A DNA stretch of 28,954 nucleotides, taken from IMG/VR virus record IMGVR_UViG_3300021142_000137, positions 1 through 28,954 of that record; one strand, written 5' to 3'. A program made the translations under genes and the position numbers. The notes beneath the pieces were generated by a model that was not told the DNA's origin, ran no database searches, and was given only the letters and a program-made list of their open reading frames with translations. The stretch comes from a virus. Its lineage: Duplodnaviria > Caudoviricetes. Numbering within the stretch: the first letter of the stretch is position 1; each line of letters opens with the position of its first letter. Shown one piece after another: positions 4,692 to 23,850 of this stretch.

Positions 4692-6275
4692 ATGGACCAA
4701 CTAATTGATGATGAAGACGACGAGTTCTACCCCGATGAAATAGAGGGCGATGAGCCCGAGATAGAAGACGAAGAGGTTGAGCTTGATGAGCTCTCCCGTG
4801 CTTTTGTCAACAAGCTTGTTGACCGCTGCATTCAATTCCAGACTGCCCTTGTAGGTCATGAGCTTCACCCTTATCAAATGCCGCTTGCCCGCCGCATTAT
4901 TGAGTCCGTCATTATTAATGACAGCGAAGAAATCACAGCTTTAGCAGCTCGTCAGAGTGGTAAGTCAGAGACTATTGCTAATACTGTGGCTACCCTAATG
5001 GTCTTACTCCCACGCCTAGCAAAGATGTACCCAGACCTCCTTGGTAAGTTTAAAGACGGCATTATGATCGGTATGTTTGCACCTGTTGAGGGACAGGTTG
5101 AAACTCTATTTGGACGTACAGTAAACCGCCTTACCTCTGAGCGAGCTTTAGAGATCCTAGGTGATCCTGAGATTGATGACAGCGTAGGCCGTGTGGCAGG
5201 TGTTACCCGCCAGATTAAGCTAAAGAACTCTGGCTCATCTCTAATGATGATGACCGCTAACCCACGTGCAAAGATTGAATCTAAGTCCTTCCATCTTATT
5301 GTTATTGATGAGTGCCAAGAAGCTGATGACTTTGTAGTATCTAAGTCAATTGCTCCTATGCTTGCGTACTACGCGGGAACTATGGTTAAAACTGGCACCC
5401 CAAATACCCACAAGAACAACTTCTACAACAGCATCATGCTTAACAAGCGTAGGCAGACCAGCAGAACCAAACGCCAAAACCATTTTGAATGGACTTGGCG
5501 AGATGTGGTTAAGGTCAACGCTAACTATGAGAAGCACATTAAGCGTGAGAAGCTGCGCATTGGCGAAGACTCAGATGAGTTTCAAATGTCGTACAACTGC
5601 AAGTGGCTTCTTGAGCGCGGTATGTTCGTTACCTCAACCACCATGGATAAGCTTGGCGACACCTCTATGGAAATTCAACGCGCCTGGCATAGAACTCCAG
5701 TAGTTGTTGGTATTGATCCAGCCCGTAAGATTGACTCTACAGTAGTAACTGTTGTCTGGGTTGACTGGGATCGCCCAGATGAGTTTGGCTATTTTGACCA
5801 TAGAGTGCTTAATTGGTTAGAGCTGCAAGGGGATGACTGGGAGGACCAATACTTCCAGATAGTAAAGTTCTTAGAGAACTACAACGTTATGTATGTTGGC
5901 GTAGATGCTAATGGTGTTGGTGACGCGGTTGCCCAGCGCCTAAAGCTTCTGCTTCCTAGGGCAGAGGTATTTGCCGTAGGTAGTAGCCAGCCTGAGCAAT
6001 CTAAACGCTGGAAGCACTTAAAAGCGCTTATGGACCGCGAGCTCATTAGTTGGCCTGCCCACGCTAAGACAAGAAAGCTTCGTAGTTACCGCCGATTTCG
6101 TCAGCAGTTAGAGGATCTAGAGACCAAGTTTACTGGTCCTAACTTCCTAGCTAAAGCGCCAGACGAAGCCCACGCGCACGATGACTACGCAGACTCGTTG
6201 GCTATCGCCTGTTCTTTAACCATCGAAATGACGATGCCACAGATTGAAGTTTCATCCAGTCCGTTTTTTAGATAA
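4692..6275 (+). CDS. terL: Terminase large subunit
   Basis: Q-motif LHPYQ, Walker A AARQSGKS, Walker B LIVIDECQ, coupling motif TGTP, RNase H-like VGIDPA and HDDYADS; acidic N-terminal extension. Confidence 0.95.
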   Translation: MDQLIDDEDDEFYPDEIEGDEPEIEDEEVELDELSRAFVNKLVDRCIQFQTALVGHELHPYQMPLARRIIESVIINDSEEITALAARQSGKSETIANTVATLMVLLPRLAKMYPDLLGKFKDGIMIGMFAPVEGQVETLFGRTVNRLTSERALEILGDPEIDDSVGRVAGVTRQIKLKNSGSSLMMMTANPRAKIESKSFHLIVIDECQEADDFVVSKSIAPMLAYYAGTMVKTGTPNTHKNNFYNSIMLNKRRQTSRTKRQNHFEWTWRDVVKVNANYEKHIKREKLRIGEDSDEFQMSYNCKWLLERGMFVTSTTMDKLGDTSMEIQRAWHRTPVVVGIDPARKIDSTVVTVVWVDWDRPDEFGYFDHRVLNWLELQGDDWEDQYFQIVKFLENYNVMYVGVDANGVGDAVAQRLKLLLPRAEVFAVGSSQPEQSKRWKHLKALMDRELISWPAHAKTRKLRSYRRFRQQLEDLETKFTGPNFLAKAPDEAHAHDDYADSLAIACSLTIEMTMPQIEVSSSPFFR

Positions 6276-6349
6276 GACTTTAGGCTGACTGTAGCTACTT
6301 TCTGTAGCACACTTTTACTGAGGTCCTCAACCTAATATAGGAGTAAATA

Positions 6350-6748
6350 ATGGCAATTGCACCAGATCCAAAGTTCCCAGAACGTCCTGGCACTGTCTAC
6401 GACCGCAAAGTCTCACCAGCAACCCCTGGTCAGCGCGGCCCACTTCGTTTTGAAGAAGGCATTGCAACAGATACAGACGTCCCACAGGAATTCACAAAGG
6501 GCGCTATGCAGGGATACGTTCCTGCAGCAGGTCGTCCAAACCGTAATCAGAATGTATTTGAGAAGCTTCCAGAAGAGACAATGCGTGAGCGCGCTCACGT
6601 TGGTTCTGCTGCATGGGTAGAAGCTCCAGATCATCTTAAGGAATTTGCTGCTGGTGGTTTTGCAGACCACGGTGACAACCGCATTGAGGAAGCATTCCGC
6701 AGCGGTGGTCCACAGAAGGCTGGCAATCCTGCAGTCGTCCACGACTAA
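6350..6748 (+). CDS. Hypothetical protein between terminase and portal (possibly virion-associated)
   Basis: SD AGGAG; codon usage resembles the capsid gene (GCA, CCA, GGT, CGT); followed by a strong hairpin. Confidence 0.75.
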   Translation: MAIAPDPKFPERPGTVYDRKVSPATPGQRGPLRFEEGIATDTDVPQEFTKGAMQGYVPAAGRPNRNQNVFEKLPEETMRERAHVGSAAWVEAPDHLKEFAAGGFADHGDNRIEEAFRSGGPQKAGNPAVVHD

Positions 6749-6754
6749 GAAATA

Positions 6755-6797
6755 AGTAAGTCATCCCTGCCTCACTAACGGGGCAGGGCTGGTTACT
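6755..6797 (+). terminator. GC-rich hairpin without U tract (terminator or mRNA-stabilising stem)
   Basis: CCCTGCCTC-ACTAAC-GGGGCAGGG core extended by AGTAA/TTACT. Confidence 0.55.
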
Positions 6798-6812
6798 ATC
6801 TAAGGATGATTA

Positions 6813-7121
6813 ATGGCGTTAATTACAGGTAAAGAAGTAAAAAAGGGTCCTAAGCAGATCCCTGCAAATCAAAAGCTTTGGAACATGCTTACTACTCAAG
6901 CGCGCTCTAAGTTCCGCACATACCCTTCTCCTGCAGCTGCCCACTGGGTTCACTCCCGCTACGTTCAACTGGGTGGCAAGTTTGTAACGTCTGAGAAAGA
7001 CGTAGATCCACGCTTCCGCGATTACGCTAAAGAAGCGCAGGATAAAAAAGAAAAAGAACAAAAGAAGGTAGTAACTAAGCCGGTAGGCCAGAACCTCATT
7101 AGAGGCGAACGTTTCCGCTGA
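6813..7121 (+). CDS. Basic hypothetical protein
   Basis: ANQKLW...ARSKFRTYPSPAAAHWV..RY..LGG; Lys-rich; SD AAGGA. Confidence 0.7.
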   Translation: MALITGKEVKKGPKQIPANQKLWNMLTTQARSKFRTYPSPAAAHWVHSRYVQLGGKFVTSEKDVDPRFRDYAKEAQDKKEKEQKKVVTKPVGQNLIRGERFR

Positions 7122-7127
7122 GTGTCG

Positions 7128-7165
7128 TTTTGTACATAAGTCGACATTTATGTTAGTATTGTCTA
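7128..7165 (+). promoter_or_regulatory. Promoter/operator upstream of the portal gene
   Basis: TTGTAC (7130-7135), 18-bp spacer, extended -10 TGTTAGTAT; 7143-7165 is 21/23 identical to 4582-4604. Confidence 0.7.
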
Positions 7166-7184
7166 AAGTTGAAAGAGGTGAGCA

Positions 7185-8897
7185 GTGAGCGGTATGGATT
7201 TCTCTCCACCGAGTTATCGTGCAGCCTCCTCTGATTTAACCATCTCCATCTCTCCGCTTGGGTTAGTAGAACTAGCGGATGAAGAGTTTGAAGTACACGG
7301 CCCACGCCTAAATCGCTACTCACTTAACTGGGCTATGTATCTTGGTCACCACTGGTCTTATCGCCGTCAGACAGGTGAGACACAGATGGTTCTTAACTAC
7401 TATCGCGCATTCAGCGACTTCATCATTAACTTTACCTTTGGTAAGGGTGTTAATTTCCGCAGCCCTAAAGAGACCGAAGCAATCGTTCCAGACCTACTAG
7501 AGCGCGTCTGGGAAGTAGATAACAACAAGGCCACAGTCCTTTGGGAAATTGGTCAGCAAGGTACGGTGTCAGGTGACTGCTTTATTAAAGTGGCTTATGA
7601 AGAGCCTTATGTGGATCCTGCTGGCCGTAAGCACCCTGGTCGTGTACGAATTTTGCCTCTTAACTCTAGTTTCGCTTTCCCCGAGTTCCATCCACACGAC
7701 CGCGAACGCCTTGTCCGTTTTAAGCTTAAGTACCGTTTTTGGGGTACTAGCTTGGAAGGTACGCGCCAAGTATTCACGTACACAGAAATCCTCACAGATG
7801 ACATCATCGAGGAATATATCAATGACGAACTCATTGACTCGCGCCCTAACCCGCTTGGCACAATTCCAGTTATTCATATCCCGAATGTTCGTATTAGTGG
7901 TAGTCCTTGGGGCCTTTCTGATTGCAATGACATTATCAATATTAATCGTGCTTACAATGAAACTGCTACTGATATTGCAGACATTGTTAATTATCACGCT
8001 GCGCCGGTTACGGTCATTATTGGCGCCAAAGCTTCTCAGCTTGAGAAAGGCGCTAACAAAGTATGGGGAGGCCTTCCAAAGGACGCACGAGTAGAAAACT
8101 TAGAAGGTGGCGCACAGGGTCTAAAGGGCGCTATGGACTTCCTAGCAATGATGAAGAAGTCTATGCACGAAATGATTGGTGTTCCTGAGACCGCTCTTGG
8201 TCAAGCTCAGCCTATCTCTAACACCTCTGGCGTTGCTCTTTCTATTCAGTTTCAGCCATTGATGAACCGTTATCACCAGAAGATCGTCCAGTATGCACAC
8301 GGTCTTGAGCGCGTAAATGAGCTTATCCTTCTTAACCTTGCCCTTAAAGAGCCAGAGACCTTTACTTGGGATCCTAACTCAAGCACTGTTCCGCTAAAGC
8401 AGGGTCAGGTCGCCAAGCTAGATGTAAATGACCCTATTACTTTCCGATCCTACGTGCACTTCCCACAACCATTGCCTCTTGACAAGCTAATTGCTATCAA
8501 TGAAGTTCAGTCAATGCTATCTCTTGGTCTTGAGTCTAAGGAAGGCGCATTGCGCATCCTGGGCGAAGAGTTCCCTATTGAGAAGCTTTCAGAGATCCGT
8601 CAAGAGCTTCAAGACGAGGCTATGGCAGATGGAGCACTCAAGCTTATCCAGACACAGATTGAGCAGGACATCATGGCCCTTACAGGGTCAATGCCAGCAC
8701 AAACAGGCCCTGGTGGTTCCTCTGCACCGGGCGCTCCAAGCGCAGAAGCACCTGCGGCCCCAACAGAGCCAGTATTACTAGATGATGCAACTATCGCCGC
8801 CCAAATGGGTGATGAGAAGGTACGCACTCGGCTAGTAACGGAAGCCTACGGTACTCAATTGCCACAGCGCAGAGTCCCAGACGGTTACCAAAAATAA
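7185..8897 (+). CDS. Portal protein (SPP1 gp6-like)
   Basis: 570 aa located between terminase and scaffold; GTVSGDCFIKV, NPLGTIPVIHIPN, WGLSD, SGVAL motifs typical of SPP1-type portals; SD GAGGTG. Confidence 0.9.
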   Translation: MSGMDFSPPSYRAASSDLTISISPLGLVELADEEFEVHGPRLNRYSLNWAMYLGHHWSYRRQTGETQMVLNYYRAFSDFIINFTFGKGVNFRSPKETEAIVPDLLERVWEVDNNKATVLWEIGQQGTVSGDCFIKVAYEEPYVDPAGRKHPGRVRILPLNSSFAFPEFHPHDRERLVRFKLKYRFWGTSLEGTRQVFTYTEILTDDIIEEYINDELIDSRPNPLGTIPVIHIPNVRISGSPWGLSDCNDIININRAYNETATDIADIVNYHAAPVTVIIGAKASQLEKGANKVWGGLPKDARVENLEGGAQGLKGAMDFLAMMKKSMHEMIGVPETALGQAQPISNTSGVALSIQFQPLMNRYHQKIVQYAHGLERVNELILLNLALKEPETFTWDPNSSTVPLKQGQVAKLDVNDPITFRSYVHFPQPLPLDKLIAINEVQSMLSLGLESKEGALRILGEEFPIEKLSEIRQELQDEAMADGALKLIQTQIEQDIMALTGSMPAQTGPGGSSAPGAPSAEAPAAPTEPVLLDDATIAAQMGDEKVRTRLVTEAYGTQLPQRRVPDGYQK

Positions 8898-9012
8898 AGT
8901 GATTTATACAGACAATTAAGACATCTATTGTCAAAATAAATACTGTAATACCACGTTAGGTCATTTGTGCCCCCACATCGGAGAACGACCCCTAGGATAA
9001 AAGGATAAACGC

Positions 9013-9795
9013 ATGTCAGAAACTGCAGAACAAATGGCTACTGCTTTTGAAGCAGAAGCAAATACCGCTCCAGTAGTAAATGTGTCGGGCGTTGACGCGC
9101 CTACTGTTACCTCTGGAAAGACCGAACCTACTCAGAAGTTTTATACCGAAGAGGATCTTGCAAAGGTTCGTTCACAAGAAAAAGAGAAGCTTTACCCAGA
9201 GATCGATCGATTGAAGGAAGAAGTTTCACTTCTCAAGAAGGAGCGGGAAGAAAAAGCAGCTCGCAAAGCAGCAGAGGCGGAAGCCAAAGCAGCTGAAGAA
9301 AAGGCTAAGCTTGAAGAGAACTTGGACGCCAAGGACTTTGCAAAAGCTACAGCTGATGAGTTGCGAGAGCAGTTGGCACGTGAGCGTCAAGAACGCGAAG
9401 CGGCCTTCGCTCTTCTGGAGCAGGAAAGAAAGTTTGCAGAACTGCAAGCATACCGTCAACAAGCTGTTGAACAGAACCGCGACAATATCATCCCTCAACT
9501 CATTGATTACGTCCAGGGCAATACCTTGGAAGAGATCAACGAGAGCATTGCAGGATTGGTTGAGCGATCTAACAGTATTCTCGAATCTGCACAGTCTGCT
9601 ATTCAGCAGCAGCGCAGAGATATGCCGGGCGTAAGGGCGACCTTGCCAGGCGTTGGACCACTGGAAACTAATTCGGAACCACGTCAGTTTACTGCCGCAG
9701 ATATTGCGTCAATGCCGATGAATGAATACGCAAAAGTCCGCACTCAGATCTTGAGCAACCGTGCTCTTGGTAAGACCAGCGGAATATTGGGCTAA
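9013..9795 (+). CDS. Capsid scaffolding protein
   Basis: Glu/Lys/Ala-rich coiled coil directly upstream of the capsid gene; C-terminal DIASMPMNEYAKVR motif typical of scaffolds. Confidence 0.85.
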   Translation: MSETAEQMATAFEAEANTAPVVNVSGVDAPTVTSGKTEPTQKFYTEEDLAKVRSQEKEKLYPEIDRLKEEVSLLKKEREEKAARKAAEAEAKAAEEKAKLEENLDAKDFAKATADELREQLARERQEREAAFALLEQERKFAELQAYRQQAVEQNRDNIIPQLIDYVQGNTLEEINESIAGLVERSNSILESAQSAIQQQRRDMPGVRATLPGVGPLETNSEPRQFTAADIASMPMNEYAKVRTQILSNRALGKTSGILG

Positions 9796-9837
9796 CACTT
9801 AATCTATTAAAAACTACTATCAAGGAGTCAAAGCCAA

Positions 9838-10911
9838 ATGGCATCAGGTATCACAGGTACAGGCAATCTTGCCGCAGCCCCTACAGCGTACTCAGGTACC
9901 AACACCCAGCTCACTCAGGCGATTCAGACTATCTGGTCCAAGGAAATCTTGTTCCAGGCTATGCCTATCCTTCGCTTCGAGCAGTTTGCAGTCAAGAAGA
10001 CTGAACTCGGTGTTGCACCTGGTCTACAGATCAACTTCATGCGTTACAACAACCTCGGATTCGCTTCACCTCTTGTTGAAGGTGTCCGTATGCAGACTAA
10101 CGCTCTCACAGCACAGCAGTTCTCAATCACTGTAACTGAGCATGGTTATGCTCTTGCAGTATCTGAGCTCTTGCTCAACGCTTCATTCGATGACGTAATG
10201 GCTTCAGCCTCACGTCTTCTCGGTCGTAACATGGCTATCTACCTAGATCAGCTCTCACGCGACACACTCTACGCAGCTTCTTCAACCCTTTACGGTGAAG
10301 ATCGCTCATCAGTCTCATCAGCTGTTAACAACTGGTACGGTTATGGAACCTTTGCTGCAAATCGCGCAGCAATGACAGGTGCTGCTTACCTCACACCACA
10401 CGTTATCAAGGACACAGTTGAGACCTTGGCAACAAAGAACATCCCACGGTTGGGCGAGACCTATGTCTGCTTCGTTCACCCACACCAGAGCCGTACTCTT
10501 CGTGACAACCCTGAGTTCATCGAAGTCACTAAGTACGCAGCTCCAGGTAACTTCATGCTCGGTGAAATCGGTCGTCTCTACGACGTAGTATTCATCGAAA
10601 CCACCCAGGTCCTTAAGGTTGTTGGTGGCGCAGGTTCTTCATACACAACTGATACAGCTGTTGCTAATCCAGTAGTTGTACCTGGTGGAGGCTACACAAC
10701 CCCTGCTACCCTCACAGGTAACGGTGCTTCAGATCGCTATGCAGCTATCATGATCGGTGATAACGCATTCGGTCACGCTATCTCACTCCCAGTCGAACTC
10801 CGCGATGGCGGTATTCTTGACTTCGGTCGTGAGCACGCGCTTGCTTGGTACTCAATCTTCGGTTTGGGATTGATTACTGATCAGAGCGTAGTAATTGTGG
10901 AGACTAACTAG
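9838..10911 (+). CDS. Major capsid protein (N4-gp56-like, HK97 fold)
   Basis: 357 aa; strong codon bias; LRFEQFA, LVEGV, TEHG, YVCFVHPHQ, GEIGRLYDVVFIET, DFGREHALAWY; SD AAGGAG. Confidence 0.93.
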   Translation: MASGITGTGNLAAAPTAYSGTNTQLTQAIQTIWSKEILFQAMPILRFEQFAVKKTELGVAPGLQINFMRYNNLGFASPLVEGVRMQTNALTAQQFSITVTEHGYALAVSELLLNASFDDVMASASRLLGRNMAIYLDQLSRDTLYAASSTLYGEDRSSVSSAVNNWYGYGTFAANRAAMTGAAYLTPHVIKDTVETLATKNIPRLGETYVCFVHPHQSRTLRDNPEFIEVTKYAAPGNFMLGEIGRLYDVVFIETTQVLKVVGGAGSSYTTDTAVANPVVVPGGGYTTPATLTGNGASDRYAAIMIGDNAFGHAISLPVELRDGGILDFGREHALAWYSIFGLGLITDQSVVIVETN

Positions 10912-10970: not shown

Positions 10971-11555
10971 ATGGCAGTACAGCACGTAAAAACAGAGTGC
11001 CCGCAAGGGCACTCTTATACAGAACAAAATTCATACATAGATAAAAACGGATACCGCCACTGCAGAGGTTGTCGTAAAGAAACGATGAGAAACCGCAGAA
11101 AAGGTAATCTTAGAGTTGGTCGAGGAGTCAATAACTCCTCTAAAACTGAGTGCCCCAAAGGCCACCCCTATGATGAAGAAAATACAATTACATATGTAAA
11201 GCCTAATGGTAAATCAAGAAGATGTTGCAGAGAGTGCGCCAGAGTTAATATGGTTACCCAAAACGTGAAGCGTTATGGCATAACTAAACAGGACTTTGAA
11301 TCATTAATAGAAGCACAGGACTCTAGATGCGCCATATGCAAGGGTAAGTTCTGGGATGAGGTCTCCTCGCCCCACATTGACCACGACCACACATGCTGTA
11401 ATAAGCAGATGAGTTCTTGCGGTAAATGTATAAGAGGGCTACTTTGCAGAGGCTGTAATCAACTCCTTGGCGTTGCTAAGGATGATATCGGGACCCTAAA
11501 GGCCGCGATAAAGTATTTACAGTCAGGAAATCTGACTTTTTCATTGAGATACTAA
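10971..11555 (+). CDS. Free-standing homing endonuclease: two Zn-finger repeats + endonuclease VII-type HNH domain
   Basis: KTECPQGHSY..N..CRGC and KTECPKGHPY..N..CREC repeats; RYGIT..Q..RCAIC..HIDHDH..IRGLLCRGCNQLLG; codon usage differs from the flanking head genes. Confidence 0.9.
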   Translation: MAVQHVKTECPQGHSYTEQNSYIDKNGYRHCRGCRKETMRNRRKGNLRVGRGVNNSSKTECPKGHPYDEENTITYVKPNGKSRRCCRECARVNMVTQNVKRYGITKQDFESLIEAQDSRCAICKGKFWDEVSSPHIDHDHTCCNKQMSSCGKCIRGLLCRGCNQLLGVAKDDIGTLKAAIKYLQSGNLTFSLRY

Positions 11556-11568
11556 TTAGGAGAATATA

Positions 11569-11934
11569 ATGGCTAAATCAAAGCCCACTGATGTAACCGG
11601 TCGTGTACGTGAGCAGCTTGCAGAACAAGCAGCCGCTGATATGAACGACCGCGCAGCTGAAATGTCTATGGCAACAGCTCAAGCCCAGGTTAAACTAGAG
11701 ACCGAAGTTATTGACGCTACTAAGCCTTCCCGTCAAACCGTTATTGTTGATGACCCTGTGACTATTGGAAGCACAGACGATTCATCTGTTGAGATTCGTG
11801 TTGTTCAAGACCTCGAGAACATGACTCTAGGTAAGGGTAATAACTACAGCTTCAAGGCTGGAGTTAAGTACAAGGTTACAAAGCAAGTAGCGCAGCACCT
11901 TAAGGAAAAAGGTTATCTGGCCGGCGTTATCTAA
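11569..11934 (+). CDS. Hypothetical head-region protein
   Basis: SD AGGAG; C-terminal YSFKAGVKYKVTKQVAQHLKEKGY; position after the capsid gene; followed by a terminator. Confidence 0.75.
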   Translation: MAKSKPTDVTGRVREQLAEQAAADMNDRAAEMSMATAQAQVKLETEVIDATKPSRQTVIVDDPVTIGSTDDSSVEIRVVQDLENMTLGKGNNYSFKAGVKYKVTKQVAQHLKEKGYLAGVI

Positions 11935-11951
11935 GGCATACTTAGCGAAGT

Positions 11952-11979
11952 GGGCGCCTCTTTTTTGAGGCGCTCTTTT
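11952..11979 (+). terminator. Intrinsic terminator ending the head operon
   Basis: GGGCGCCTC-TTTTTT-GAGGCGCTC-TTTT. Confidence 0.8.
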
Positions 11980-12040
11980 CGTATGTAGAGATTTTTTATC
12001 GGTTCTACGACATCATTGGTTATAACGAGTGTAGGGAGTT

Positions 12041-13129
12041 TTGGTGGCTTTATTATCTGACATACTCTCTAGGGTCCGTTTAGACCTCGGAGATATTCAA
12101 AAGAACTTCACCTTCACAGCCACAGGCGATGGCGTAACAACAATCTTTTCTACTGGCATTAAGCCTATTGAGATTGTAAACCTTACGGTTACTGAGAATG
12201 GTAACCCTATTGGCTACCCATACGGGTACACAGTTGAGCAAGATACGGGCATTATCACCTTTGCCAACGCCCCTGCAGCAAACGCCACCATCCTTATTCA
12301 AGGCGTTCAAGATCGCTACTTCTTAGACTCAGAGCTCTGCGTCTTTATTAATGACGCTGTAACAGAGCACACATACAACCGCGTTGATGCCTACGGTACT
12401 CAAGTTACCCTTGCTAGCATCTCCCCAGTTGAGACTTACCCAATCGCTATCTTGGCAACCATTGAGGCGCTCTGGGCACTTGCTACAGACGCAGCCTTTG
12501 ATATCAACATCACCGCCCCTGATGGAGTTATGATCCCAAGAGCTCAGCGTTATCAACAGCTCTCAACTATTATCCAGCAGCGTTGGGAACAATATAAAGC
12601 CCTATGCTCACAACTCAATGTTGGCCTATGGAAGATTGAGATGGGCACGCTCATCCGCACATCTCGTACGACTAACAAGTACGTTCCAATCTACATCGGT
12701 CAAGAGGTAGATGACGCCCGTAAACCTGAGCGCGTCTACATTACTAACAACCTTACTGGCCGCAGCCCTATGCCAACCAACGCACAGAACTACGATATTA
12801 TTCTTTACCAGGGCAATAACTTTTCTGTTGAGTTTGACTTTCCATTTGACGCCTCGCTTTATGCTTGGGCTGCTCAGATCAGAACCTACCCTAACTCCCC
12901 ATCTTTATACGCAAACTTTGGTATAACAGTAACCTCTCATTCGTCAACGCTTAGCAAGGTAGTCCTTACATTACAACCTAAGGACACAGAGTATCTGCCA
13001 ACTCGCGCTTTCTGGGATCTAACAGCTACATTAAAGACAGACGATACTCAGGTTACAACTTACGTCAAAGGACAAGTATTTACGACTCAGGCTGTAAGCC
13101 TTGACGTCGGCACCTACGGAAGTTGGTAG
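12041..13129 (+). CDS. Head-tail adaptor/neck protein with an inserted beta domain and a C-terminal BppU-like Ig domain
   Basis: LLSDILSRVRLDLGD...YFLDSELCVFINDAV helical adaptor pattern; C-terminal YDIILYQGNNF..AQIR..VVLTL..WDL..TYVKGQV. Start may be TTG 12041 or GTG 12044. Confidence 0.65.
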   Translation: MVALLSDILSRVRLDLGDIQKNFTFTATGDGVTTIFSTGIKPIEIVNLTVTENGNPIGYPYGYTVEQDTGIITFANAPAANATILIQGVQDRYFLDSELCVFINDAVTEHTYNRVDAYGTQVTLASISPVETYPIAILATIEALWALATDAAFDINITAPDGVMIPRAQRYQQLSTIIQQRWEQYKALCSQLNVGLWKIEMGTLIRTSRTTNKYVPIYIGQEVDDARKPERVYITNNLTGRSPMPTNAQNYDIILYQGNNFSVEFDFPFDASLYAWAAQIRTYPNSPSLYANFGITVTSHSSTLSKVVLTLQPKDTEYLPTRAFWDLTATLKTDDTQVTTYVKGQVFTTQAVSLDVGTYGSW

Positions 13130-13132
13130 GAC

Positions 13133-14404
13133 TTGAATACTTGTAATACTTGCGGTAACTGGCCGTGTACTTGCCCAATTATAGTGGTGCCTCAACCACC
13201 AGTAGCTATTACAGTTGTTCCACAAAATCCTGGTCAAGGCGTACAAGGTATTCAAGGTATTCAAGGACCCGCTGGTTCTGGTAGCGGTGGTTCACAGGGA
13301 ACAGGTGCGCAAGGCGTACAAGGTATTCAAGGCGTACAGGGCGCTTATGGTTTACAAGGACACGTTGGGCAGATCGGTGTTCAAGGTTTTACAGGTGCAC
13401 AAGGCCCTCTTGGTGTTCAAGGATCTTCTGGTTACATTGGTGCAGATGGTCATCAAGGTACACAAGGCGTTCAAGGTCTTGCTGGTCAGTTTGCTGGTCA
13501 AGGTGTGCAAGGTCTACAGGGACAAACTGGTTTACAGGGAGCAACTGGTCTACAAGGTAGCGTAGGCTTACAAGGCTCAGTTGGTTTACAAGGAACAATT
13601 GGCGCTCAAGGTACACAGGGCGTACAAGGTAATTATGGTAATCAAGGAACTACTGGTTCTCAAGGTTCTATTGGCGCACAAGGTGTTCAAGGTTTGCAAG
13701 GCCCTCAAGGAGTTCAAGGACTTCAAGGTATACAAGGTGTTCAAGGACACTACGGTAATCAAGGTACGACTGGTGCGCAGGGTATTCAAGGCACTCAGGG
13801 TTTGCAAGGAGTGCAGGGCTCTGTTGGCGCACAAGGCGCTCAGGGTATTCAAGGGCTTCAAGGTCTTATTGGTCTACAAGGCGTAAATGGTATTCAAGGA
13901 TTTATTGGCTTTCAAGGATCAACTGGCTCTCAAGGTCTACAAGGACTTATAGGTCTTCAGGGCTTTAGTGGTATTCAAGGCCTTACCGGTTTTCAAGGTG
14001 CAACTGGCGCTGGTGCGCAAGGTACAACTGGTACTCAAGGTGTTCAGGGTATCCAAGGATTTGGTTATGCCCAGCTACAAGGTGTCCAAGGAACTACTGG
14101 TAGTCAGGGAATTATCTCTGGATCTTCGGCTCCTGCCAACACTGGAGTCCTATGGTTAGACACCTCTGTAGGCGGAATTGTTGGTACCCAAAAGGTTACC
14201 TTCTTAATCGGTGATGGAACCAACACTACTTACACAGTCACACACAATTTGGGCACTAGAGATATTGAAGTTACTGTCTACGATCAGACCACCTACGCGG
14301 TAATTATCCCGTCATCTTTGGTCTACTCAACCATAAATACCGCAACACTAACTTTTGCCTCCCCACCCGCCTTAAATAACTACAAAGTAGTGGTCCTGGG
14401 ATAA
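13133..14404 (+). CDS. Collagen-like (Gly-X-Gln) fibre protein 1
   Basis: Cys-rich N-terminus, long GxQ tract, APANTGVLWLDTS motif, C-terminal GDG..TYTVTHNLGTRD.V.VYD domain. TTG start is uncertain. Confidence 0.85.
   Translation: MNTCNTCGNWPCTCPIIVVPQPPVAITVVPQNPGQGVQGIQGIQGPAGSGSGGSQGTGAQGVQGIQGVQGAYGLQGHVGQIGVQGFTGAQGPLGVQGSSGYIGADGHQGTQGVQGLAGQFAGQGVQGLQGQTGLQGATGLQGSVGLQGSVGLQGTIGAQGTQGVQGNYGNQGTTGSQGSIGAQGVQGLQGPQGVQGLQGIQGVQGHYGNQGTTGAQGIQGTQGLQGVQGSVGAQGAQGIQGLQGLIGLQGVNGIQGFIGFQGSTGSQGLQGLIGLQGFSGIQGLTGFQGATGAGAQGTTGTQGVQGIQGFGYAQLQGVQGTTGSQGIISGSSAPANTGVLWLDTSVGGIVGTQKVTFLIGDGTNTTYTVTHNLGTRDIEVTVYDQTTYAVIIPSSLVYSTINTATLTFASPPALNNYKVVVLG
13235..14110 (+). repeat. 9-nt-periodic GGN-NNN-CAR coding repeat
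   Basis: Recurrent CAAGG/CAGGG every 9 or 18 nt; boundaries approximate. Confidence 0.9.
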
Positions 14405-14477
14405 TGATGACGGAATTTAACCCCACAGAAATAGATTTAAGACTTAACATTAATGCTGTAGCCAACCTAGGAGAGCC

Positions 14478-17400
14478 ATGTCCCAATTAAAGTATTATGA
14501 CACCGGATCCGGTCAATGGATTGCGGCCATTGTTGGCGCACAAGGCGCTCAAGGAACAACTGGTATTCAAGGCACCCAAGGCGTACAAGGTACGCAGGGT
14601 ATTCAAGGAACGCAGGGCGTGCAGGGTACAACTGGTATCCAGGGTACGCAGGGTACACAAGGTATTCAGGGAGTTCAGGGAACTCAAGGCTTACAGGGAA
14701 CACAAGGTACTCAGGGTGTACAAGGTACACAGGGTATTCAAGGAATTCAGGGACCACAGGGTACACAAGGAACACAAGGTGTTCAGGGTACGCAGGGTAT
14801 TCAAGGCATTCAAGGTGTGCAAGGCACACAAGGTACGCAAGGCACACAAGGCGTACAGGGAACACAAGGCATTCAAGGTGTCCAAGGTAATCAAGGTACT
14901 CAAGGAATCCAAGGCGTTCAGGGAACGCAAGGTATCCAAGGAACTATTGGTCAGACTGGTTCGCAGGGTACACAGGGAATTCAAGGACTTCAGGGAGTTC
15001 AAGGTACACAAGGTGTACAAGGTACAACTGGCCTACAAGGAACTCAAGGCACGCAGGGTGTTCAAGGAACACAAGGTGTGCAGGGTACAACTGGTATTCA
15101 AGGTACGCAGGGAACACAAGGAGTTCAAGGAACTCAGGGTGTTCAAGGCACAACCGGTATTCAGGGAACACAAGGCACACAAGGAGTTCAGGGAACTCAA
15201 GGTGTGCAGGGCACACAGGGAATTCAAGGAATTCAAGGTATCCAAGGCCTACAGGGTCTACAGGGTGCTGCTGGCTCACAGAACGCACACGCATCTGTTT
15301 ACACTACAACAACAACCGCACTTGCTGGTTCACCTTCATACACTGCAGGAACAGCAGATGCCTCTAACGGTCTTGGTGTAGGCGCTTACCTTCAAGCAAC
15401 AACTAACGGTTATTTGGTAGTTGACGGTTACACATACTCTGGACCACTACCAGCAGATACTCGCATACTTGTTAAGAACCAGGCCGATGCTCGTCAAAAC
15501 GGTATCTATACAGTTACAAGTGCAGGCTCTGCATCTACTACCTGGAAACTTACTCGCGCGACTGACTATGACAACCATCTTGCAGATCAGGTAGAGCCTG
15601 GCGACTATTTATACACAGTTGCTGGTTCAACTAACGTTGGTACCTCATGGATCCAATATGATCTTGGCTCTAACACTAACGGCACCATTAAAATCGGTAC
15701 CGATAACATCAACTTCTCTCAGACCTCTGCTGTTGGTAACCAGGGTACAACTGGTGCCCAAGGTACTCAGGGTGTTCAGGGAACACAGGGTCTACAGGGC
15801 ACACAGGGTATTCAGGGCACCCAAGGCATCCAGGGTATTCAAGGAGTACAAGGACCTCAGGGAACCCAAGGAGTTCAAGGAACTCAGGGAACCCAGGGAC
15901 TACAGGGTATCCAGGGACCACAAGGAACTCAGGGTACGCAGGGCGTACAGGGAACCACTGGTATCCAAGGAACTCAAGGCACCCAGGGAGTACAAGGTAC
16001 TCAGGGAACGCAAGGAATTCAGGGTACTCAAGGTATCCAAGGAATCCAGGGACGTTCTTACACTGGCGTAACCTCAACTACCTCTAACACAATTGGTACT
16101 GGTTCACTAACCTTTGCCGTAGCAAACTCTGGCGCATTTGCGCTCGGTCAGTTTGTAACAGTTGCGTACACAGTAACGCCTGCTAACTATGTATCTGGTC
16201 AGATCACATCGATCACAACAGATACCAGCATTACTATCAATGCAACAAGCACTGGCGGTTCTGGAACATTCTCACAGTGGACAATCTCTACTGCTGGTGT
16301 TCAGGGTACAACTGGTTCACAGGGAACCCAAGGCACTCAGGGAATCCAGGGTATTCAGGGCCTACAAGGACCTCAAGGAACTCAAGGAGTTCAGGGTACA
16401 CAAGGAACGCAGGGTACTCAGGGAGTTCAAGGAACTCAGGGTATTCAGGGAACCCAAGGTAACCAAGGAACCACCGGTACACAGGGTACGCAGGGAACTC
16501 AAGGCCTACAAGGTCTTCAGGGAACTCAGGGAACAACTGGTACCCAGGGTCTAACAGGTACCCAAGGTACACAGGGTATCCAAGGTCTCCAGGGACAATC
16601 TATCCAGGGTGTACAGGGTACGCAGGGTATTCAGGGTGGCGTAACAAACGCTCCAGTATTTACTACAACTGAATTCACCGCTACATCTGGTCAGACAACC
16701 TTCAGCGTTACATATAACCCAGGTTATATCAACGTCTTCCTCAATGGTGTCCGCCTAAGCTCAGCAGACTACACAGCAACTAACGGAACATCTGTTGTTC
16801 TGGCGGTTGGGGCAGTAGCCGGGGATATCGTTGTTGTTCAGAACATCACTCTCGGTCTTGGTGCTCAAGGTGTCCAAGGTCTACAGGGTGTGCAGGGCAC
16901 ACAAGGTCTACAGGGACTACAAGGTCTCCAAGGTCTACAGGGTCAGATCGGTGTACAGGGCCTTGCTGTAGGAAATACTGCTCCGGCAAACCAGGGCGTA
17001 CTATGGCTTGATACCTCAGTAACTGGCGTAGTCGGTCTCTCCTCTGCAAACTTCACTGCTAAGGGTGACACAATTGCGGGAACTGGCTCAGGAACCTTTG
17101 CTACTCTCCCAGTTGGTGCTAATAACACTATCCTCACAGCCGACTCAACACAAACAACAGGTGTTAAGTGGACAACAAACCTATCAGGTTTAAGCCTACA
17201 ATCACCAAACACCTACAACTCAGTAATTGTAGCGCCTTCAATTTCCTATAACATCAATGCTCAAACTGGTGCTTACACAACTGTTCTAGCGGATGCTGCG
17301 GCAATTATTACTGCAAGCTCTGGCTCAGCGTTTACGGTCTCGATCCCAACTAACGCATCAGTGGCCTATCCAGTAGGATCTTCAATCACGATTATACAAA

Positions 17401-17564
17401 CTGGCGCAGGACAGGTTACAATTGCTGCTGTGACATCAGGTACAACAACGCTTAACTCAACGGGTGCTACCTCAGCTACTCCTAAGTTAAGAGCGCAGAA
17501 CTCATCAGCCACCTGTATCAAGGTTGCTACAGATGTCTGGCAAGTAGTAGGAGATATCGTCTAA
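14478..17564 (+). CDS. Large collagen-like (Gly-X-Gln) fibre protein 2 with interspersed globular modules
   Basis: Four GxQ tracts separated by RILVKNQ..NGIY..W.LTRATD, TSTTSNTIGTG, and FTATSGQTTF..VFLNGV modules; then GVLWLDTS, TAKGD and a C-terminal ...VVGDIV domain. SD AGGAG. Confidence 0.9.
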   Translation: MSQLKYYDTGSGQWIAAIVGAQGAQGTTGIQGTQGVQGTQGIQGTQGVQGTTGIQGTQGTQGIQGVQGTQGLQGTQGTQGVQGTQGIQGIQGPQGTQGTQGVQGTQGIQGIQGVQGTQGTQGTQGVQGTQGIQGVQGNQGTQGIQGVQGTQGIQGTIGQTGSQGTQGIQGLQGVQGTQGVQGTTGLQGTQGTQGVQGTQGVQGTTGIQGTQGTQGVQGTQGVQGTTGIQGTQGTQGVQGTQGVQGTQGIQGIQGIQGLQGLQGAAGSQNAHASVYTTTTTALAGSPSYTAGTADASNGLGVGAYLQATTNGYLVVDGYTYSGPLPADTRILVKNQADARQNGIYTVTSAGSASTTWKLTRATDYDNHLADQVEPGDYLYTVAGSTNVGTSWIQYDLGSNTNGTIKIGTDNINFSQTSAVGNQGTTGAQGTQGVQGTQGLQGTQGIQGTQGIQGIQGVQGPQGTQGVQGTQGTQGLQGIQGPQGTQGTQGVQGTTGIQGTQGTQGVQGTQGTQGIQGTQGIQGIQGRSYTGVTSTTSNTIGTGSLTFAVANSGAFALGQFVTVAYTVTPANYVSGQITSITTDTSITINATSTGGSGTFSQWTISTAGVQGTTGSQGTQGTQGIQGIQGLQGPQGTQGVQGTQGTQGTQGVQGTQGIQGTQGNQGTTGTQGTQGTQGLQGLQGTQGTTGTQGLTGTQGTQGIQGLQGQSIQGVQGTQGIQGGVTNAPVFTTTEFTATSGQTTFSVTYNPGYINVFLNGVRLSSADYTATNGTSVVLAVGAVAGDIVVVQNITLGLGAQGVQGLQGVQGTQGLQGLQGLQGLQGQIGVQGLAVGNTAPANQGVLWLDTSVTGVVGLSSANFTAKGDTIAGTGSGTFATLPVGANNTILTADSTQTTGVKWTTNLSGLSLQSPNTYNSVIVAPSISYNINAQTGAYTTVLADAAAIITASSGSAFTVSIPTNASVAYPVGSSITIIQTGAGQVTIAAVTSGTTTLNSTGATSATPKLRAQNSSATCIKVATDVWQVVGDIV
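14534..16962 (+). repeat. Four GxQ coding-repeat tracts (about 14534-15266, 15735-16052, 16297-16638, 16860-16962)
   Basis: GTQGVQGTQGIQ units with synonymous variation; boundaries approximate. Confidence 0.9.
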
Positions 17565-19087
17565 TGCCAATTATCTTTGGAACAACGGCTTCGGGTGGAG
17601 ACAAGTACTTCACCCCACAGCCACCTACTATTGGTACCGCTACTAACGTAGGCACATCTCGCGCCTACAACAATGGCGCGGCTACTGTTACATTTACTCC
17701 TTCAACATCTGGTGGTACAGCTACTAGCTTTACCGCTACATCTACACCTGGATCATTTACAGGCTCAGCCTCTTCTAGCCCAGTCACAGTAGCGGGTCTA
17801 CAGAGCGCTACCTCTTATACATTTGCAGTTACTGCAACAGACGCTGAGGGCACATCTTCTGCCTCCTCTGCCTCTAACTCAATCACGGCTACAACAATTC
17901 CTGATGTTCCAGGAACCCCAACTGCATCGGTAACTAACTCAACAACTGTATCTTTGGCATTTACTGCGGGTAATACTGGTGGGTCAACAATCACTTCTTA
18001 CACAGTTACTAGCAGTCCTTCAATTTCTCTCTCTGTATCTGGAACATCAAGCCCTTTGACAATTACAGGAACATTTGTACAAGGCACCGCATATACATTT
18101 ACTATTGCTGCTGTAAATGCTAACGGGACTTCAACTACTTCTTCAGCATCTAATTCTATTACACCTTACCCTCTTCCTTCAGTATCTGGTGGAACACTGA
18201 CATCAGATGCTACTTACTATTATAGAACGTTTACTGGTAATGGGACTCTTACAGTTTCTGGCGGAAGTATTACCTCAGATGTGTTAGTAGTTGCTGGCGG
18301 CGGCGGCGGCGGTGGTACCTGTAACACTAGAGGTGGCGGTGGCGGTGGCGCTGGTGGCGTACTTTATAATGCCTCACAGACTCTTTCACCAAGTTCTTAC
18401 ACTGTTACTGTTGGTTCAGGAGCAAGTGGAGGAACTCCTTCTTACTATTCTTGTTATAGTTGTGGAACAAGTACACACCCAGTACACGGTGCACAGGGAT
18501 GTGGTTCAAGTTTAGGTTCTTATGTTGCTACTGGCGGCGGCTACGGAGGTAGCGGAGATTACCGTGGCGGCGGAGTTCAAAATGCTGGTCCAGGAGGCTC
18601 AGGCGGTGGCGGTGGCGGCTATCAAAATGGAACTGCACAAGGTGCGGGCGCAGGAACCTCTGGTCAAGGAAATAACGGCGGATATGCCACCGCTTGTGGT
18701 AAGCCTGGAGGCGGTGGTGGTGGCGCAGGTGCCGCAGGTCAAAGTGGAACAGCCTACCCTGGTGGAAATTACGGTGGTGCTGGCGTTTCTTATTTTGGTT
18801 CTACCTATGGCGGTGGCGGTGGAGGAGCAAGTGTAAGCGGTGGTAGCCCAACAACTGCTGGTGCAGGAGGCTCTGGTGGGGGCGGAAGAAGCGCTTATCA
18901 AGTAAACTCAATTACTCTTTACGAAGCTGTTGCGGGAACTACCAACACTGGCGGTGGCGGTGGCGGTGGCGGCTATCACATCTTTCAAGCCAATGGTGCG
19001 GATGGATATAAAATTGGCGCTTATGGAGCAAATGGTGGTTCTGGAATCGTTATTGTTCGTTACACACGCTCACAGGTAGGTGGATAA
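17564..19087 (+). CDS. Adhesin/fibre tip: two FN3-like domains + glycine-rich domain
   Basis: P.PPTIGTAT...GLQSATSYTFAVTAT and GTAYTFTIAAVNANG; YRTFTGNG..VLVVAGGGGG...GGSGIVIVRY. TAATG overlap with the previous gene. Confidence 0.85.
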   Translation: MPIIFGTTASGGDKYFTPQPPTIGTATNVGTSRAYNNGAATVTFTPSTSGGTATSFTATSTPGSFTGSASSSPVTVAGLQSATSYTFAVTATDAEGTSSASSASNSITATTIPDVPGTPTASVTNSTTVSLAFTAGNTGGSTITSYTVTSSPSISLSVSGTSSPLTITGTFVQGTAYTFTIAAVNANGTSTTSSASNSITPYPLPSVSGGTLTSDATYYYRTFTGNGTLTVSGGSITSDVLVVAGGGGGGGTCNTRGGGGGGAGGVLYNASQTLSPSSYTVTVGSGASGGTPSYYSCYSCGTSTHPVHGAQGCGSSLGSYVATGGGYGGSGDYRGGGVQNAGPGGSGGGGGGYQNGTAQGAGAGTSGQGNNGGYATACGKPGGGGGGAGAAGQSGTAYPGGNYGGAGVSYFGSTYGGGGGGASVSGGSPTTAGAGGSGGGGRSAYQVNSITLYEAVAGTTNTGGGGGGGGYHIFQANGADGYKIGAYGANGGSGIVIVRYTRSQVGG

Positions 19088-19464
19088 TGGCGCACTGGGC
19101 AAAGATAGAAAACGGTATTGTTACACAAGTACTCGTTGGTGATAACAATGACCCAGCGGGTGATGAGGGCTACCAGTGGCTAGTAGATAATCTTGGCGGT
19201 ACTTGGGTTAAAACCTCATATAACACACATGCTGGGGTTCACTATGGCCCAGATGGAACCCCTGACGGTGGAGTTGCTCTACGTAAAAACTATGCAAGAG
19301 TAGGCCATACCTACGACGAGACATTGGACGCGTTTATTCCACCAAAACCAGAGTCCGTTTTTTCTAAGAAGACTGGTGTAGAGGTAGAGTACAAAGAGCC
19401 CGAAGTAACATTTTATGTAGACCCTGATACTGGGCTTTGGATGACTAAGTTTACCAATAAGTAG
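19087..19464 (+). CDS. Small protein following the Gly-rich tip (fibre-associated/chaperone-like)
   Basis: MAHWAKIENGIVTQVLV...WVKTSYNT...LRKNYA..G.TYD...DAFIPPKP; TAATG-coupled to the tip gene. Confidence 0.8.
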   Translation: MAHWAKIENGIVTQVLVGDNNDPAGDEGYQWLVDNLGGTWVKTSYNTHAGVHYGPDGTPDGGVALRKNYARVGHTYDETLDAFIPPKPESVFSKKTGVEVEYKEPEVTFYVDPDTGLWMTKFTNK

Positions 19465-19541
19465 TAGGGATAGCACCTACCGTTTGACACACTTAGTATA
19501 GGCATGTGCTAAGGTTAAGGCATCTAATTAAGGAGCCTTAT

Positions 19542-20240
19542 ATGGAGATTATCTTTACGGACGTACATAACCCTGATGGCGTATTAGAAAAGCCAAAACC
19601 CGCGATTGAGTACATCCCTCAATGGTATAAAGATGCTAAGGCTTATCTAGATATTAGCGGTAAAAAAGCCCCACCAATAGAGCCAATACCTGGAGCAACT
19701 ATTAAACGCTGCATGCCTGTATGGGACATGATGACTGCTGGCTATATCATGGAGACTCCATACGATATATACATCCGACAAACTCAAGATGGTCCATACT
19801 TTCAATGGGGTGCAAACGAAGCAATTATATTTCAATCTATGGACCAGTTCCAAAATCACCCTTACTCAAAAGATATTAACTACGCAGTAAGAATTAACAT
19901 TCCATGGTCAATCAAAACCCCTAAAGGCTGGTCTATTATGATAATGGAGCCACAACATCATGAGCCAGGCCCTATTACCTGCGCCAGTGGAATTGTAGAC
20001 TCTGATGATTTCTCTATCCCATTTAATATGTTCCTTAAACTTCGTGACCCTAATTTTGAGGGCATGATTCCTGCGGGAACTCCTTTCCTACAGATTATTC
20101 CTTTTAAGAGAGAGTCTTGGACCTCATCACTGGGTGGGGATAAGGAGCGCAAAAAGTACGAATCTGATTATAAAAAGTTTCTGCGGGTCTTCTTTGACAG
20201 ATATAAGAAGTTCTGGTGGAATAAGAAGGAATACAAGTAG
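19542..20240 (+). CDS. Uncharacterised beta-rich protein (DUF6065-like, possibly dUTPase-like fold)
   Basis: TIKRCMP..D.MTAGY, PWSIKTPKGWS, SGIVDSD, IPAGTPFLQIIPFKRE. ATG 19542 has SD AAGGAG and is preferred to GTG 19506. Confidence 0.65.
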   Translation: MEIIFTDVHNPDGVLEKPKPAIEYIPQWYKDAKAYLDISGKKAPPIEPIPGATIKRCMPVWDMMTAGYIMETPYDIYIRQTQDGPYFQWGANEAIIFQSMDQFQNHPYSKDINYAVRINIPWSIKTPKGWSIMIMEPQHHEPGPITCASGIVDSDDFSIPFNMFLKLRDPNFEGMIPAGTPFLQIIPFKRESWTSSLGGDKERKKYESDYKKFLRVFFDRYKKFWWNKKEYK

Positions 20241-20311
20241 CAGTTTCGCCCTCGTAAGCGCGGGCTTTAGGGGATAATAAAAGCACCTTCCCCTAAGCCC
20301 AGTGAGGTTTC

Positions 20312-20770
20312 ATGTCTCAGATTAAGTACTACGACACTGGCTCCAGTCAATGGATTGCAGCGATCGTAGGCGCGCAGGGCGCTCAAGGCACTCAGGGTGT
20401 TCAGGGACTTGGCTATGCTCAATTGCAGGGTGTACAGGGCATTCAGGGCGTTACTGGAGCACAAGGAACCACAGGCCTACAAGGTATAACTGGCTCTCAA
20501 GGTACGCAGGGCTTACAAGGCCTACAAGGTATTCAGGGAACAACTGGTATTCAGGGCTCACTTGGTACGCAGGGAACAACTGGAGCGCAAGGCTCTCAAG
20601 GCACAACTGGTATCCAAGGCCTTACTGGTTTCCAGGGCGTACAAGGTCTACAGGGTATTCAGGGCTTTCAAGGAACTACAGGTATTCAAGGTAACCTTGG
20701 TGTACAGGGTATTCAAGGCTCTTACGCTTTTGACCCAACAGTTAGCTTCTTAATGCTAGGTGGGATGTAA
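20312..20770 (+). CDS. Short collagen-like (Gly-X-Gln) fibre protein 3
   Basis: N-terminus almost identical to fibre 2; GxQ tract; hydrophobic C-terminal peptide FDPTVSFLMLGGM; SD GAGGT. Confidence 0.9.
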   Translation: MSQIKYYDTGSSQWIAAIVGAQGAQGTQGVQGLGYAQLQGVQGIQGVTGAQGTTGLQGITGSQGTQGLQGLQGIQGTTGIQGSLGTQGTTGAQGSQGTTGIQGLTGFQGVQGLQGIQGFQGTTGIQGNLGVQGIQGSYAFDPTVSFLMLGGM

Positions 20771-23517: not shown

Positions 23518-23850
23518 ATGGCAACCGCTTATAAAGTCTTGGCTCAAGCCAATCCCGCAGCTACAACAGAGACAACCCTTTACTCGCCAAGTGGCTCAGC
23601 CGCTGCCGTAGTATCTACCCTAACTATCTGTAACCAGGCTAACTCCCCAGCCACTTACCGTATTGCCGTGTGGCCAAATGGAACATCCTCTTCAGTTGCT
23701 AAGAGCTGGATTGTTTACGGAGCAACAGTAAACGCCAACGATACAACCGCGCTCACTCTTGGACTTACCCTAGAAAACGGAGCAACCCTCCGCGTCTACG
23801 CCTCTTCAGCTAACTTGTCCTTCAATGCGTTTGGAAGCGAAATCTCCTAG
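23518..23850 (+). CDS. Small beta-sandwich fibre-associated/adaptor protein
   Basis: MATAYKVLAQANPAATTETTLY...STLTICNQ...LSFNAFGSEIS; SD AAGGAG. Confidence 0.75.
   Translation: MATAYKVLAQANPAATTETTLYSPSGSAAAVVSTLTICNQANSPATYRIAVWPNGTSSSVAKSWIVYGATVNANDTTALTLGLTLENGATLRVYASSANLSFNAFGSEIS

Follow-up and report, generated by a model that had tools for sequence, protein, structure and literature searches.

The question raised by the virus record IMGVR_UViG_3300021142_000137 of IMG/VR (Duplodnaviria; Caudoviricetes) is how several collagen-like fibre proteins, each encoded by a gene of its own, may be joined into a single appendage. The record measures 29 kb and was analysed whole (positions 1 to 28,954, hereafter the window); it holds the virion module of a tailed phage, in which terminase, portal and major capsid genes are followed by fibre-like genes. 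Three of the fibre proteins carry one or both of two short motifs, a socket that lies directly after a collagen tract and a plug that opens the protein, and comparison with related phages indicates that these are the two halves of one small knob, which probably re-form that knob between different proteins.

Sockets and plugs in three collagen-like fibre genes

The fibre genes and their motifs are arranged as follows, with the strands of the knob assigned from the model described below.

13133..14404, plus strand: fibre 1 (root), with a Cys-rich, Val/Ile/Pro-rich N-terminus, 92 G-X-Y triplets, a socket and a C-terminal domain of ~70 aa; no plug
14108..14170, plus strand: socket 1, predicted strands 1-2 of the knob
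14478..17564, plus strand: fibre 2 (middle), with a plug at the N-terminus, 169 G-X-Y triplets spread over several tracts that include globular inserts, a socket and a C-terminal part of ~180 aa
14478..14534, plus strand: plug of fibre 2, predicted strands 3-4 (hairpin) of the knob
16959..17021, plus strand: socket 2, of the strands 1-2 type, in fibre 2
20312..20770, plus strand: fibre 3 (tip), with a plug, 38 G-X-Y triplets and a short hydrophobic C-terminal peptide; no socket
20312..20368, plus strand: plug that opens fibre 3

The two sockets and the two N-terminal plugs, which a first-pass annotation of the sequence had placed at 14129, 16980, 14478 and 20312, are all present at those coordinates. 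The core of socket 1, APANTGVLWLDTSV, occupies 14129-14170 in fibre 1, and that of socket 2, APANQGVLWLDTSV, occupies 16980-17021 in fibre 2, each directly after a G-X-Y tract and each followed by unrelated sequence, just as the annotation had described the motif as lacking any continuation. Only the extent of the sockets needs correction, given that strand 1 begins ~7 residues earlier (14108 and 16959), the full socket being 21 residues long. The sequence MSQ[L/I]KYYDTGS[G/S]QWIAAIVGAQG opens both fibre 2 and fibre 3, and both plug genes are preceded by a ribosome-binding-like AGGAG or GAGG. Across the six frames of the window, W[LAV]DT, [LI]KYYD and GVLW occur exactly twice each, and the window itself contains separated halves only, with no whole knob.

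The two plugs show 13 synonymous and 2 non-synonymous differences over the 26 codons compared, and the two socket cores 7 and 1, respectively, over 14 codons. Because these differences are mostly synonymous, the codon comparison argues that selection on the protein, and not recent duplication, keeps the copies alike. Residues are also invariant across ~50 diverged copies of each half; the sockets retain P, W, D and T though they stand before unrelated sequence or near a stop codon, and the 19-residue plug heads many unrelated bodies.

All three fibres, whose genes lie 3' of the capsid gene, match PHROG tail fibres and PF01391, collagen being all that Pfam detects in them. Their repeats are of a Pro-poor G-X-Q type, the phage being known here only from metagenomes. 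No depolymerase family was found in fibres 1-3, whose non-collagen stretches reach at most ~200 residues, and the C-terminal part of fibre 2 yielded one Atlas lead below 0.9, to T4_gp9_10_N on 13% of members.

Two halves of one contiguous knob

The relatives compared below are labelled L for DNA loci, P for proteins from the socket profile search and G for whole virus records. The proposal that socket and plug form a single domain split across genes is borne out by natural proteins that carry both signatures in one chain (L197, P0001, P0002, P0016, P0033 and P0045, and further P0058, P0062, P0099 and P0144), which are the contiguous counterpart of the concatenated halves. In L197, a socket of the window type is followed by three residues and then by the plug, and the AlphaFold2 model of this fusion (mean pLDDT 84) has four strands, two from each half, the socket contributing 6-9 and 19-22 and the plug 27-32 and 38-41. 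The split point corresponds to the loop between strands 2 and 3. The relatives reached through the 362-aa gene upstream of fibre 1 (80 loci, 51-71% identity) mostly contain whole knobs, and the socket, used as a profile, aligns to the first half of 24 contiguous knobs with an hhalign probability of 93.8. The fusions and the model thus indicate a four-stranded knob of ~40 residues, contiguous in related phage proteins, of which the socket supplies one half and the plug the other.

A search with the socket alignment profile against 1.84 billion representatives gave 703 matches (protein clusters at 50% identity, whole knobs included). Among the best 150 proteins of these 703, 147 contain a total of 183 socket motifs, of which 16 are directly followed by a plug-like stretch according to a pattern; the remaining 167 orphan sockets are an overcount, because the pattern misses some whole knobs. 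The knob has no Pfam family of its own, the 24 whole knobs matching DUF7360 (4/24) and DUF2793 (1/24) weakly, and a search of PDB sequences with the whole-knob profile returned nothing below E 0.07.

In some relatives (L018 at 11058-17354, L027, L030 and L124) one collagen protein may contain as many as 11 whole knobs, and some of these relatives have instead, at the N-terminus, modules of a different short type rich in aromatic residues. A conserved gene of 56 aa that consists of plug, 7-residue linker and socket was also observed (L127:2580-2747, and in L099, L107, L114, L126, L132 and L158), placed inside socket/plug chains of up to four genes. In the monomer model of its product (pLDDT 62, from a shallow alignment of 7 near-identical sequences), only the plug forms a structure, again a hairpin, and the socket part is unstructured.

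Co-occurrence of the halves in related phages

The halves were also followed across viral contigs by two independent DNA-pattern scans, which gave 85 plug stretches and 77 socket stretches, grouped into lineages by shared 21-mers, with one lineage in each set being the window's own. Starting from the socket, 38 lineages comprise 26 with a downstream N-terminal plug, 3 without one, 3 with less than 1 kb of downstream sequence, 2 with short ORFs and 4 that did not match the peptide pattern, so that a plug follows in 26 of the 29 testable lineages, in 20 of them no more than 300 nt past the socket gene's end. The four lineages unmatched by the pattern are the L197 fusion, L223, where a divergent C-terminal socket is followed 3 kb on by a plug-like gene, and two short ORFs. 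Two of those lacking a downstream plug (L145 and L202) carry a plug or plug-like stretch at the start of the very gene that holds the socket, and their sequence ends 2.2-2.5 kb later.

Starting from the plug, an upstream orphan socket in another gene is found in 25 of the 28 testable lineages, the 38 lineages being divided into these 25, 3 with no socket by profile, 3 cut off upstream and 7 with no plug by profile. Two of the lineages with no profile socket (L119 and L141) contain divergent sockets by pattern. The gene order is socket before plug across loci, and the co-occurrence holds for genes 1.8-5.5 kb apart. As a control, 32 lineages were chosen by the upstream 362-aa gene, 18 of which have at least 6 kb of downstream sequence; neither half occurs in 15 of these, both in 2, the plug only in 1 (a 39-aa gene) and the socket only in none.

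Counts over 25 whole records (13 selected and 12 control, many of them fragments) give a similar picture, with equal numbers of plugs and sockets in 10 of the 13 selected records, including the closest relative, G001 (92% complete, 2:2), and G005 (4:4), and with neither half in 11 of the 12 control records, the other having a plug only. A second, unselected locus of G005 (L227; G005:C1:23000-40000) holds three sockets and three plugs, distributed in gene order over a socket protein, a 1031-aa protein with one plug and two collagen-flanked sockets, and two plug genes, which would amount to an explicit predicted tree. Of the refuting conditions named in the first-pass annotation, a failure of the joined halves to match contiguous domains and a frequent occurrence of orphan halves were examined, and neither was borne out; the halves occur together in most lineages and far beyond the control, and these surveys indicate that the split-knob halves are a real, conserved and widespread feature.

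A number of observations pull the other way. The loci scored by the profiles also served to train them, and there is overlap between the socket and plug sets. Taken as separate profiles, the halves behave unequally, given that the alignment obtained with the socket has no equal in the plug, which against the first 24 contiguous knobs gives an hhalign probability of only 10.8 and a best score of 10.4 bits, as compared with 9.1 bits for the best of 960 shuffles. Inside the later-found fusions the plug profile scores 10-16 bits, and the link between socket and plug rests on these fusions. Among the loci, L210 has a socket-like match in a non-collagen context with no plug in 8 kb, L092 has a plug with whole knobs only in the 3.7 kb upstream, and L054/L057, whose record is 48% complete, have a 39-aa plug gene and lack a socket. 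There are more plugs than sockets in G006, G008 and G011 (where the local profile or pattern finds 3, 2 and 2 sockets) and in L166 (3:2). Some plugs head non-collagen Gly-rich proteins, and these outnumber sockets in L166 and L119, an excess that would fit single chains or alternatives that compete for sockets. Two helices leaving one three-fold knob, as implied by the collagen that follows 27 of 79 distinct sockets, would require the symmetry to be broken, and the matches of the model to known trimeric-knob folds all fall below threshold (best Foldseek E 0.62; best VIA Z 4.2, none with Z of at least 5). The plug-only gene of 39 aa lies at L057:14530-14646 and has Met in place of Lys; its sibling L051 has a socket in the first fibre gene.

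A probable joint at branch points

The first-pass annotation had envisaged an end-to-end chain of fibre 1, fibre 2 and fibre 3. Both sockets of the window, however, lie inside chains that continue for 79 residues (socket 1) and ~180 residues (socket 2), and in other phages more collagen follows 27 of 79 distinct sockets, a stop codon within 20 residues being found in 6 of 79. Because the sockets are internal and the chains continue, a branch point is more likely than an end-to-end link. The order 1-2-3 is likewise not encoded in the motifs, whose copies are near-identical.

The joint may be pictured as follows. Fibre 1, which has no plug, would be fixed to the virion by its N-terminus, on the upstream 362-aa protein, and the fibre 1 trimer would receive, in its three sockets, the N-terminal hairpins of three fibre 2 chains, the trimeric state being suggested by the flanking G-X-Y tracts. 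Fibre 3 would dock on socket 2 as fibre 2 does on socket 1, and in each case the C-terminal part of the socket-bearing chain would splay or bend aside. Given the near-identity of the copies of each half, a plug could fit either of the two sockets, and the pairing would probably be set by supply and timing. Collagen rises by ~0.87 nm per triplet, and the 299 triplets of the three fibres would give an appendage with up to ~260 nm of collagen path, whose outer segments could be swapped by exchanging everything behind the plug.

On the fusions, the model and the co-occurrence, we consider it likely that the halves re-form the knob in trans in this manner, a plug-bearing fibre docking on a socket-bearing fibre at a branch point. 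Trans-complementation in the broader sense, with a polymeric variant included, may be held with good confidence. In that variant, fibre 2 would add to itself and fibre 3 would end the chain, which would result in an open-ended polymer and fibres of variable length. The lack of a visible pairing code between the two near-identical sockets and plugs would allow it, proteins that combine plug and socket are frequent (14 of the 147 with a socket match, among the best 150 of 703), and the 56-aa protein is little but plug and socket, with a spacing like that of one unit of the tandem whole-knob arrays. Yet socket and plug genes alternate with mostly equal counts, for which a fixed tree suffices, and in many lineages a single socket gene is accompanied by a single plug gene, neither of them carrying both halves, so that on its own the polymer seems quite unlikely. 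It is also unlikely that the knob was split by gene fission and that its parts then took up separate roles, the plug as a folding or trimer-nucleating hairpin or as a dock for another part of the virion and the socket as an independent half-knob, with linkage as the explanation of their co-occurrence. This would suit a plug that models as a hairpin alone, adjacent genes that are inherited together, the few plug-only loci and, from what part of the report on phage DT57C describes, fibre N-terminal strands that dock on other proteins (PMC10713586). Linkage accounts poorly, however, for co-occurrence over gene distances of 1.8-5.5 kb and for counts that rise together (2:2, 4:4), and separate roles account poorly for a socket that keeps its P, W, D and T in such varied surroundings; a socket of two strands, unstructured in the model of the 56-aa protein, would moreover hardly be an autonomous fold.

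Completion of the knob in cis, whether by the sequence after the socket, by the protein's own plug folding back or by recoding or splicing that joins the halves, is considered very improbable. A few proteins have a gap of 7-15 residues between plug and socket (the L127 type), and some socket and plug genes overlap at stop and start, but the sequence after the socket differs from case to case, from collagen to an early stop, and after socket 1 come a conserved domain and then a stop. In fibre 2, 169 triplets lie between plug and socket, a plug is lacking in fibre 1 and a socket in fibre 3, three genes and 3.3 kb separate socket 2 from the plug of fibre 3, and each plug has its own ribosome-binding-like site; even the 56-aa protein does not close on itself in its monomer model, which the shallow alignment makes weak evidence. 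Least credible of all is the reading in which gene fission at a recombination-prone knob left the halves as relics without function, for which the high mosaicism of the fibre genes and one degenerate 39-aa plug gene might speak, given that the synonymous excess in both halves largely refutes it and that invariant residues in the diverged copies, and the relative L013, which keeps the plug although its body has been replaced, are also against it. Readings as an artefact or a frameshift were rejected on the grounds set out for these alternatives.

Comparison with known joints

In chaperone-usher pili, an incomplete Ig fold takes its missing strand from the N-terminal extension of the subunit that follows, and a chaperone and an usher are needed. 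The split knob resembles these pili in the proposed completion of an incomplete fold in trans and in a logic of root, extender and tip, and differs from them in that the pili use an Ig fold, a single strand and monomers, whereas here a knob of ~40 residues is cut into two strands plus two, with a hairpin and likely trimers. No chaperone or usher gene was found among the 32 window proteins scanned from this 29-kb fragment.

The literature covered (Creative Commons papers in PMC and bioRxiv, without subscription papers or supplements) contained no description of a split, repeatable knob joint, and the published systems below are cited from parts of their texts. The Klebsiella podophage receptor-binding proteins KP32gp37 and KP32gp38 combine a branching domain with a conserved 29-aa N-terminal peptide (PMC13352976), branching of the T4 gp10 type is described for phiKp24, G7C and CBA120, with multi-level trees in phiKp24 (bioRxiv 2022.03.15.484430), and in Tuc2009 a hairpin of BppU completes the sheet of BppA (PMC4742702). 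The split knob would work like KP32 docking, its nearest counterpart in function, and like Tuc2009 sheet completion, its nearest in mechanism, and belongs to neither. As in KP32, where the secondary fibre docks on the primary one through a short N-terminal peptide, whatever body is fused to it, and yields branched and swappable devices, the system of the window has a conserved short N-terminal peptide, the plug, in front of unrelated bodies. The KP32 acceptor, however, is described as a separate T4 gp10-like domain on depolymerase spikes with beta-helical bodies, whereas here the proposed acceptor is a 21-residue half-knob among collagen tracts, the peptide is that knob's other half, the whole knob exists unsplit in relatives and one protein may carry both halves. 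In Tuc2009, similarly, a hairpin of one protein completes the sheet of the other and a composite domain attaches the accessory protein, but that hairpin is C-terminal, the composite is titin/Ig-like, and the parts cited present a single use in the baseplate, neither repeated nor collagen-borne.

In phage DT57C, N-terminal strands of the LtfA fibre augment the sheets of LtfC, the LtfA-LtfB branch not being resolved in the text cited (PMC10713586). The likeness lies in fibre N-terminal strands that augment the sheets of another protein; the difference is that a complete domain of the collar ring is augmented there, whereas a half-domain would be completed here. By analogy, LtfA-LtfC possibly illustrates the attachment of fibre 1 to the upstream gene product with its weak LtfC-like match.

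The whole-knob model was also compared, with weak but consistent results, with small beta-knobs that belong to trimeric proteins, several of them phage fibres or collagens, and that are single-chain domains throughout. The nearest match was the 38-residue crAss001 chain 7qof_l (VIA Z 4.2, rmsd 2.4 over 37 residues), followed by a C-terminal stretch of CBA120 TSP3 (Z 3.7), the trimerisation domains of collagen XV and XVIII (Z 3.3 and 3.0) and Mtd (Foldseek E ~3). Because these scores lie below significance, homology to such knobs is a lead only. The identification of 7qof_l as the N-domain of crAss001 gp21 is our own, from its fit to the trimer of residues 1-38 described in part of PMC10172136, and a collagen XVIII-like N-domain is described in a phage tailspike (PMC8822698, also cited in part).

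Fibre ends and their exchange

The fibre genes of this family are highly mosaic. In the relative L013, a near-identical plug heads a different body of 590 aa in place of that of fibre 3, and because the plug is kept and the body replaced, fibre 3 is identified, by sequence comparison, as an exchangeable tip. The end of fibre 3 (20726-20770) is a hydrophobic peptide, DPTV...LGGM, which recurs at the C-termini of collagen proteins in L026 and L033, with related endings in L027, L039 and L155. Loci with an ending of this type likewise carry a gene for a homologue of the 110-aa protein encoded at 23518-23850 (phrog_1276/693), which lies directly downstream in L027/L030, and the peptide and the 110-aa protein are possibly a second docking pair.

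At the other end of the set, fibre 1 starts (13133-13240) with a Cys-rich stretch and two Val/Ile/Pro-rich segments, a type of start that recurs in L018, L027, L030, L037 and L045 and is a candidate for a metal site with anchoring strands. The C-terminal domain of fibre 1 matches proteins of cultured phages that are annotated as virion structural or head decoration proteins, and no socket precedes the domain in the cultured matches Phrappuccino gp70 and PBS1 gp87. Two other matches in cultured phages were set aside, that in Grayson being on the strand opposite to its gene and that in S-B68 consisting of whole knobs. The C-terminal domain of fibre 2 (17200-17564) resembles, by eye, the C-terminal half of a 208-aa ORF at 23850-24476.

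Neighbouring genes and occurrence

The remaining features of the window that bear on the fibres are as follows.

4692..10911, plus strand: terminase large subunit, portal and major capsid genes, the tailed-phage virion module of the virus record
12041..13129, plus strand: 362-aa gene upstream of fibre 1, with a head-tail-adaptor-like N-terminal part and an LtfC/BppU-like C-terminal part
17564..20240, plus strand: three genes between socket 2 and the fibre 3 plug (an fn3 plus Gly-rich protein, phrog_7759 and a DUF6065-like protein)

The product of the 362-aa gene matches Pfam LtfC below the cut-off (E 6e-4) and has Atlas leads under 0.9 to BppU_N, HCP and Phage_connect_1, that is, to head-tail connector and BppU-like families; from these matches it is likely to be the anchor for fibre 1. 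The three genes at 17564..20240 contain neither plug nor socket. An endonuclease VII-type gene lies directly 3' of the major capsid gene (10971-11555). Among the fibre genes, the segment 20771-23456 encodes a minus-strand cupin (mannose-6-phosphate isomerase C-terminal-like), a 341-aa protein, a TPR protein and an FkbM methyltransferase, and it is possible that these form a cassette for glycosylation or modification of the fibres.

The stretch is present as DNA in 20 of the 23 listed runs, all labelled freshwater metagenome, and no RNA run is among the listed runs that hold it. A promoter and terminator scan of the window remained at chance level.

A possible laboratory model and wider meaning

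A tblastn search of cultured phages with the window plug and P0062 found no match. Among the loci caught by the plug scan were proviral ones of the L081 type, in which the gene upstream has a pair of socket-like stretches at its end (L081:9170-10100) and a homologue (60% identity) in YomF of the B. subtilis phage SPbeta. A pair of such stretches also closes YomF, the second of them lying at the stop codon (L232:4125-5222, yomF-yomE), and YomE opens with a plug-like stretch that lacks Trp. The profile scores in SPbeta are low (3.6-7.2 bits, with no YomE match above 1 bit), and the socket profile found no match on the L081 record. As a lead only, YomF-YomE may be a homologous joint that could serve as a laboratory model.

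A wider proposal, which we regard as tentative and on balance doubtful, is that the split knob is a general and promiscuous plug-and-socket connector of tailed phages, from the freshwater collagen phages to possibly SPbeta (YomF-YomE), by which fibre trimers branch and chain into trees. The joint may also template the trimerisation of the incoming collagen, and plug-plus-socket proteins such as fibre 2 would extend the fibre to a variable length until a plug-only tip is added.

If the halves do bind each other, two motifs of ~20 residues would predict the wiring of fibres from sequence in many uncultured phages, and the joint would account for the exchange of the outer segments of adhesion fibres and for the arrangement of fibre genes as runs of separate ORFs. 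It would also provide a small three-fold connector with which trimeric proteins, collagen-like or other, could be joined.

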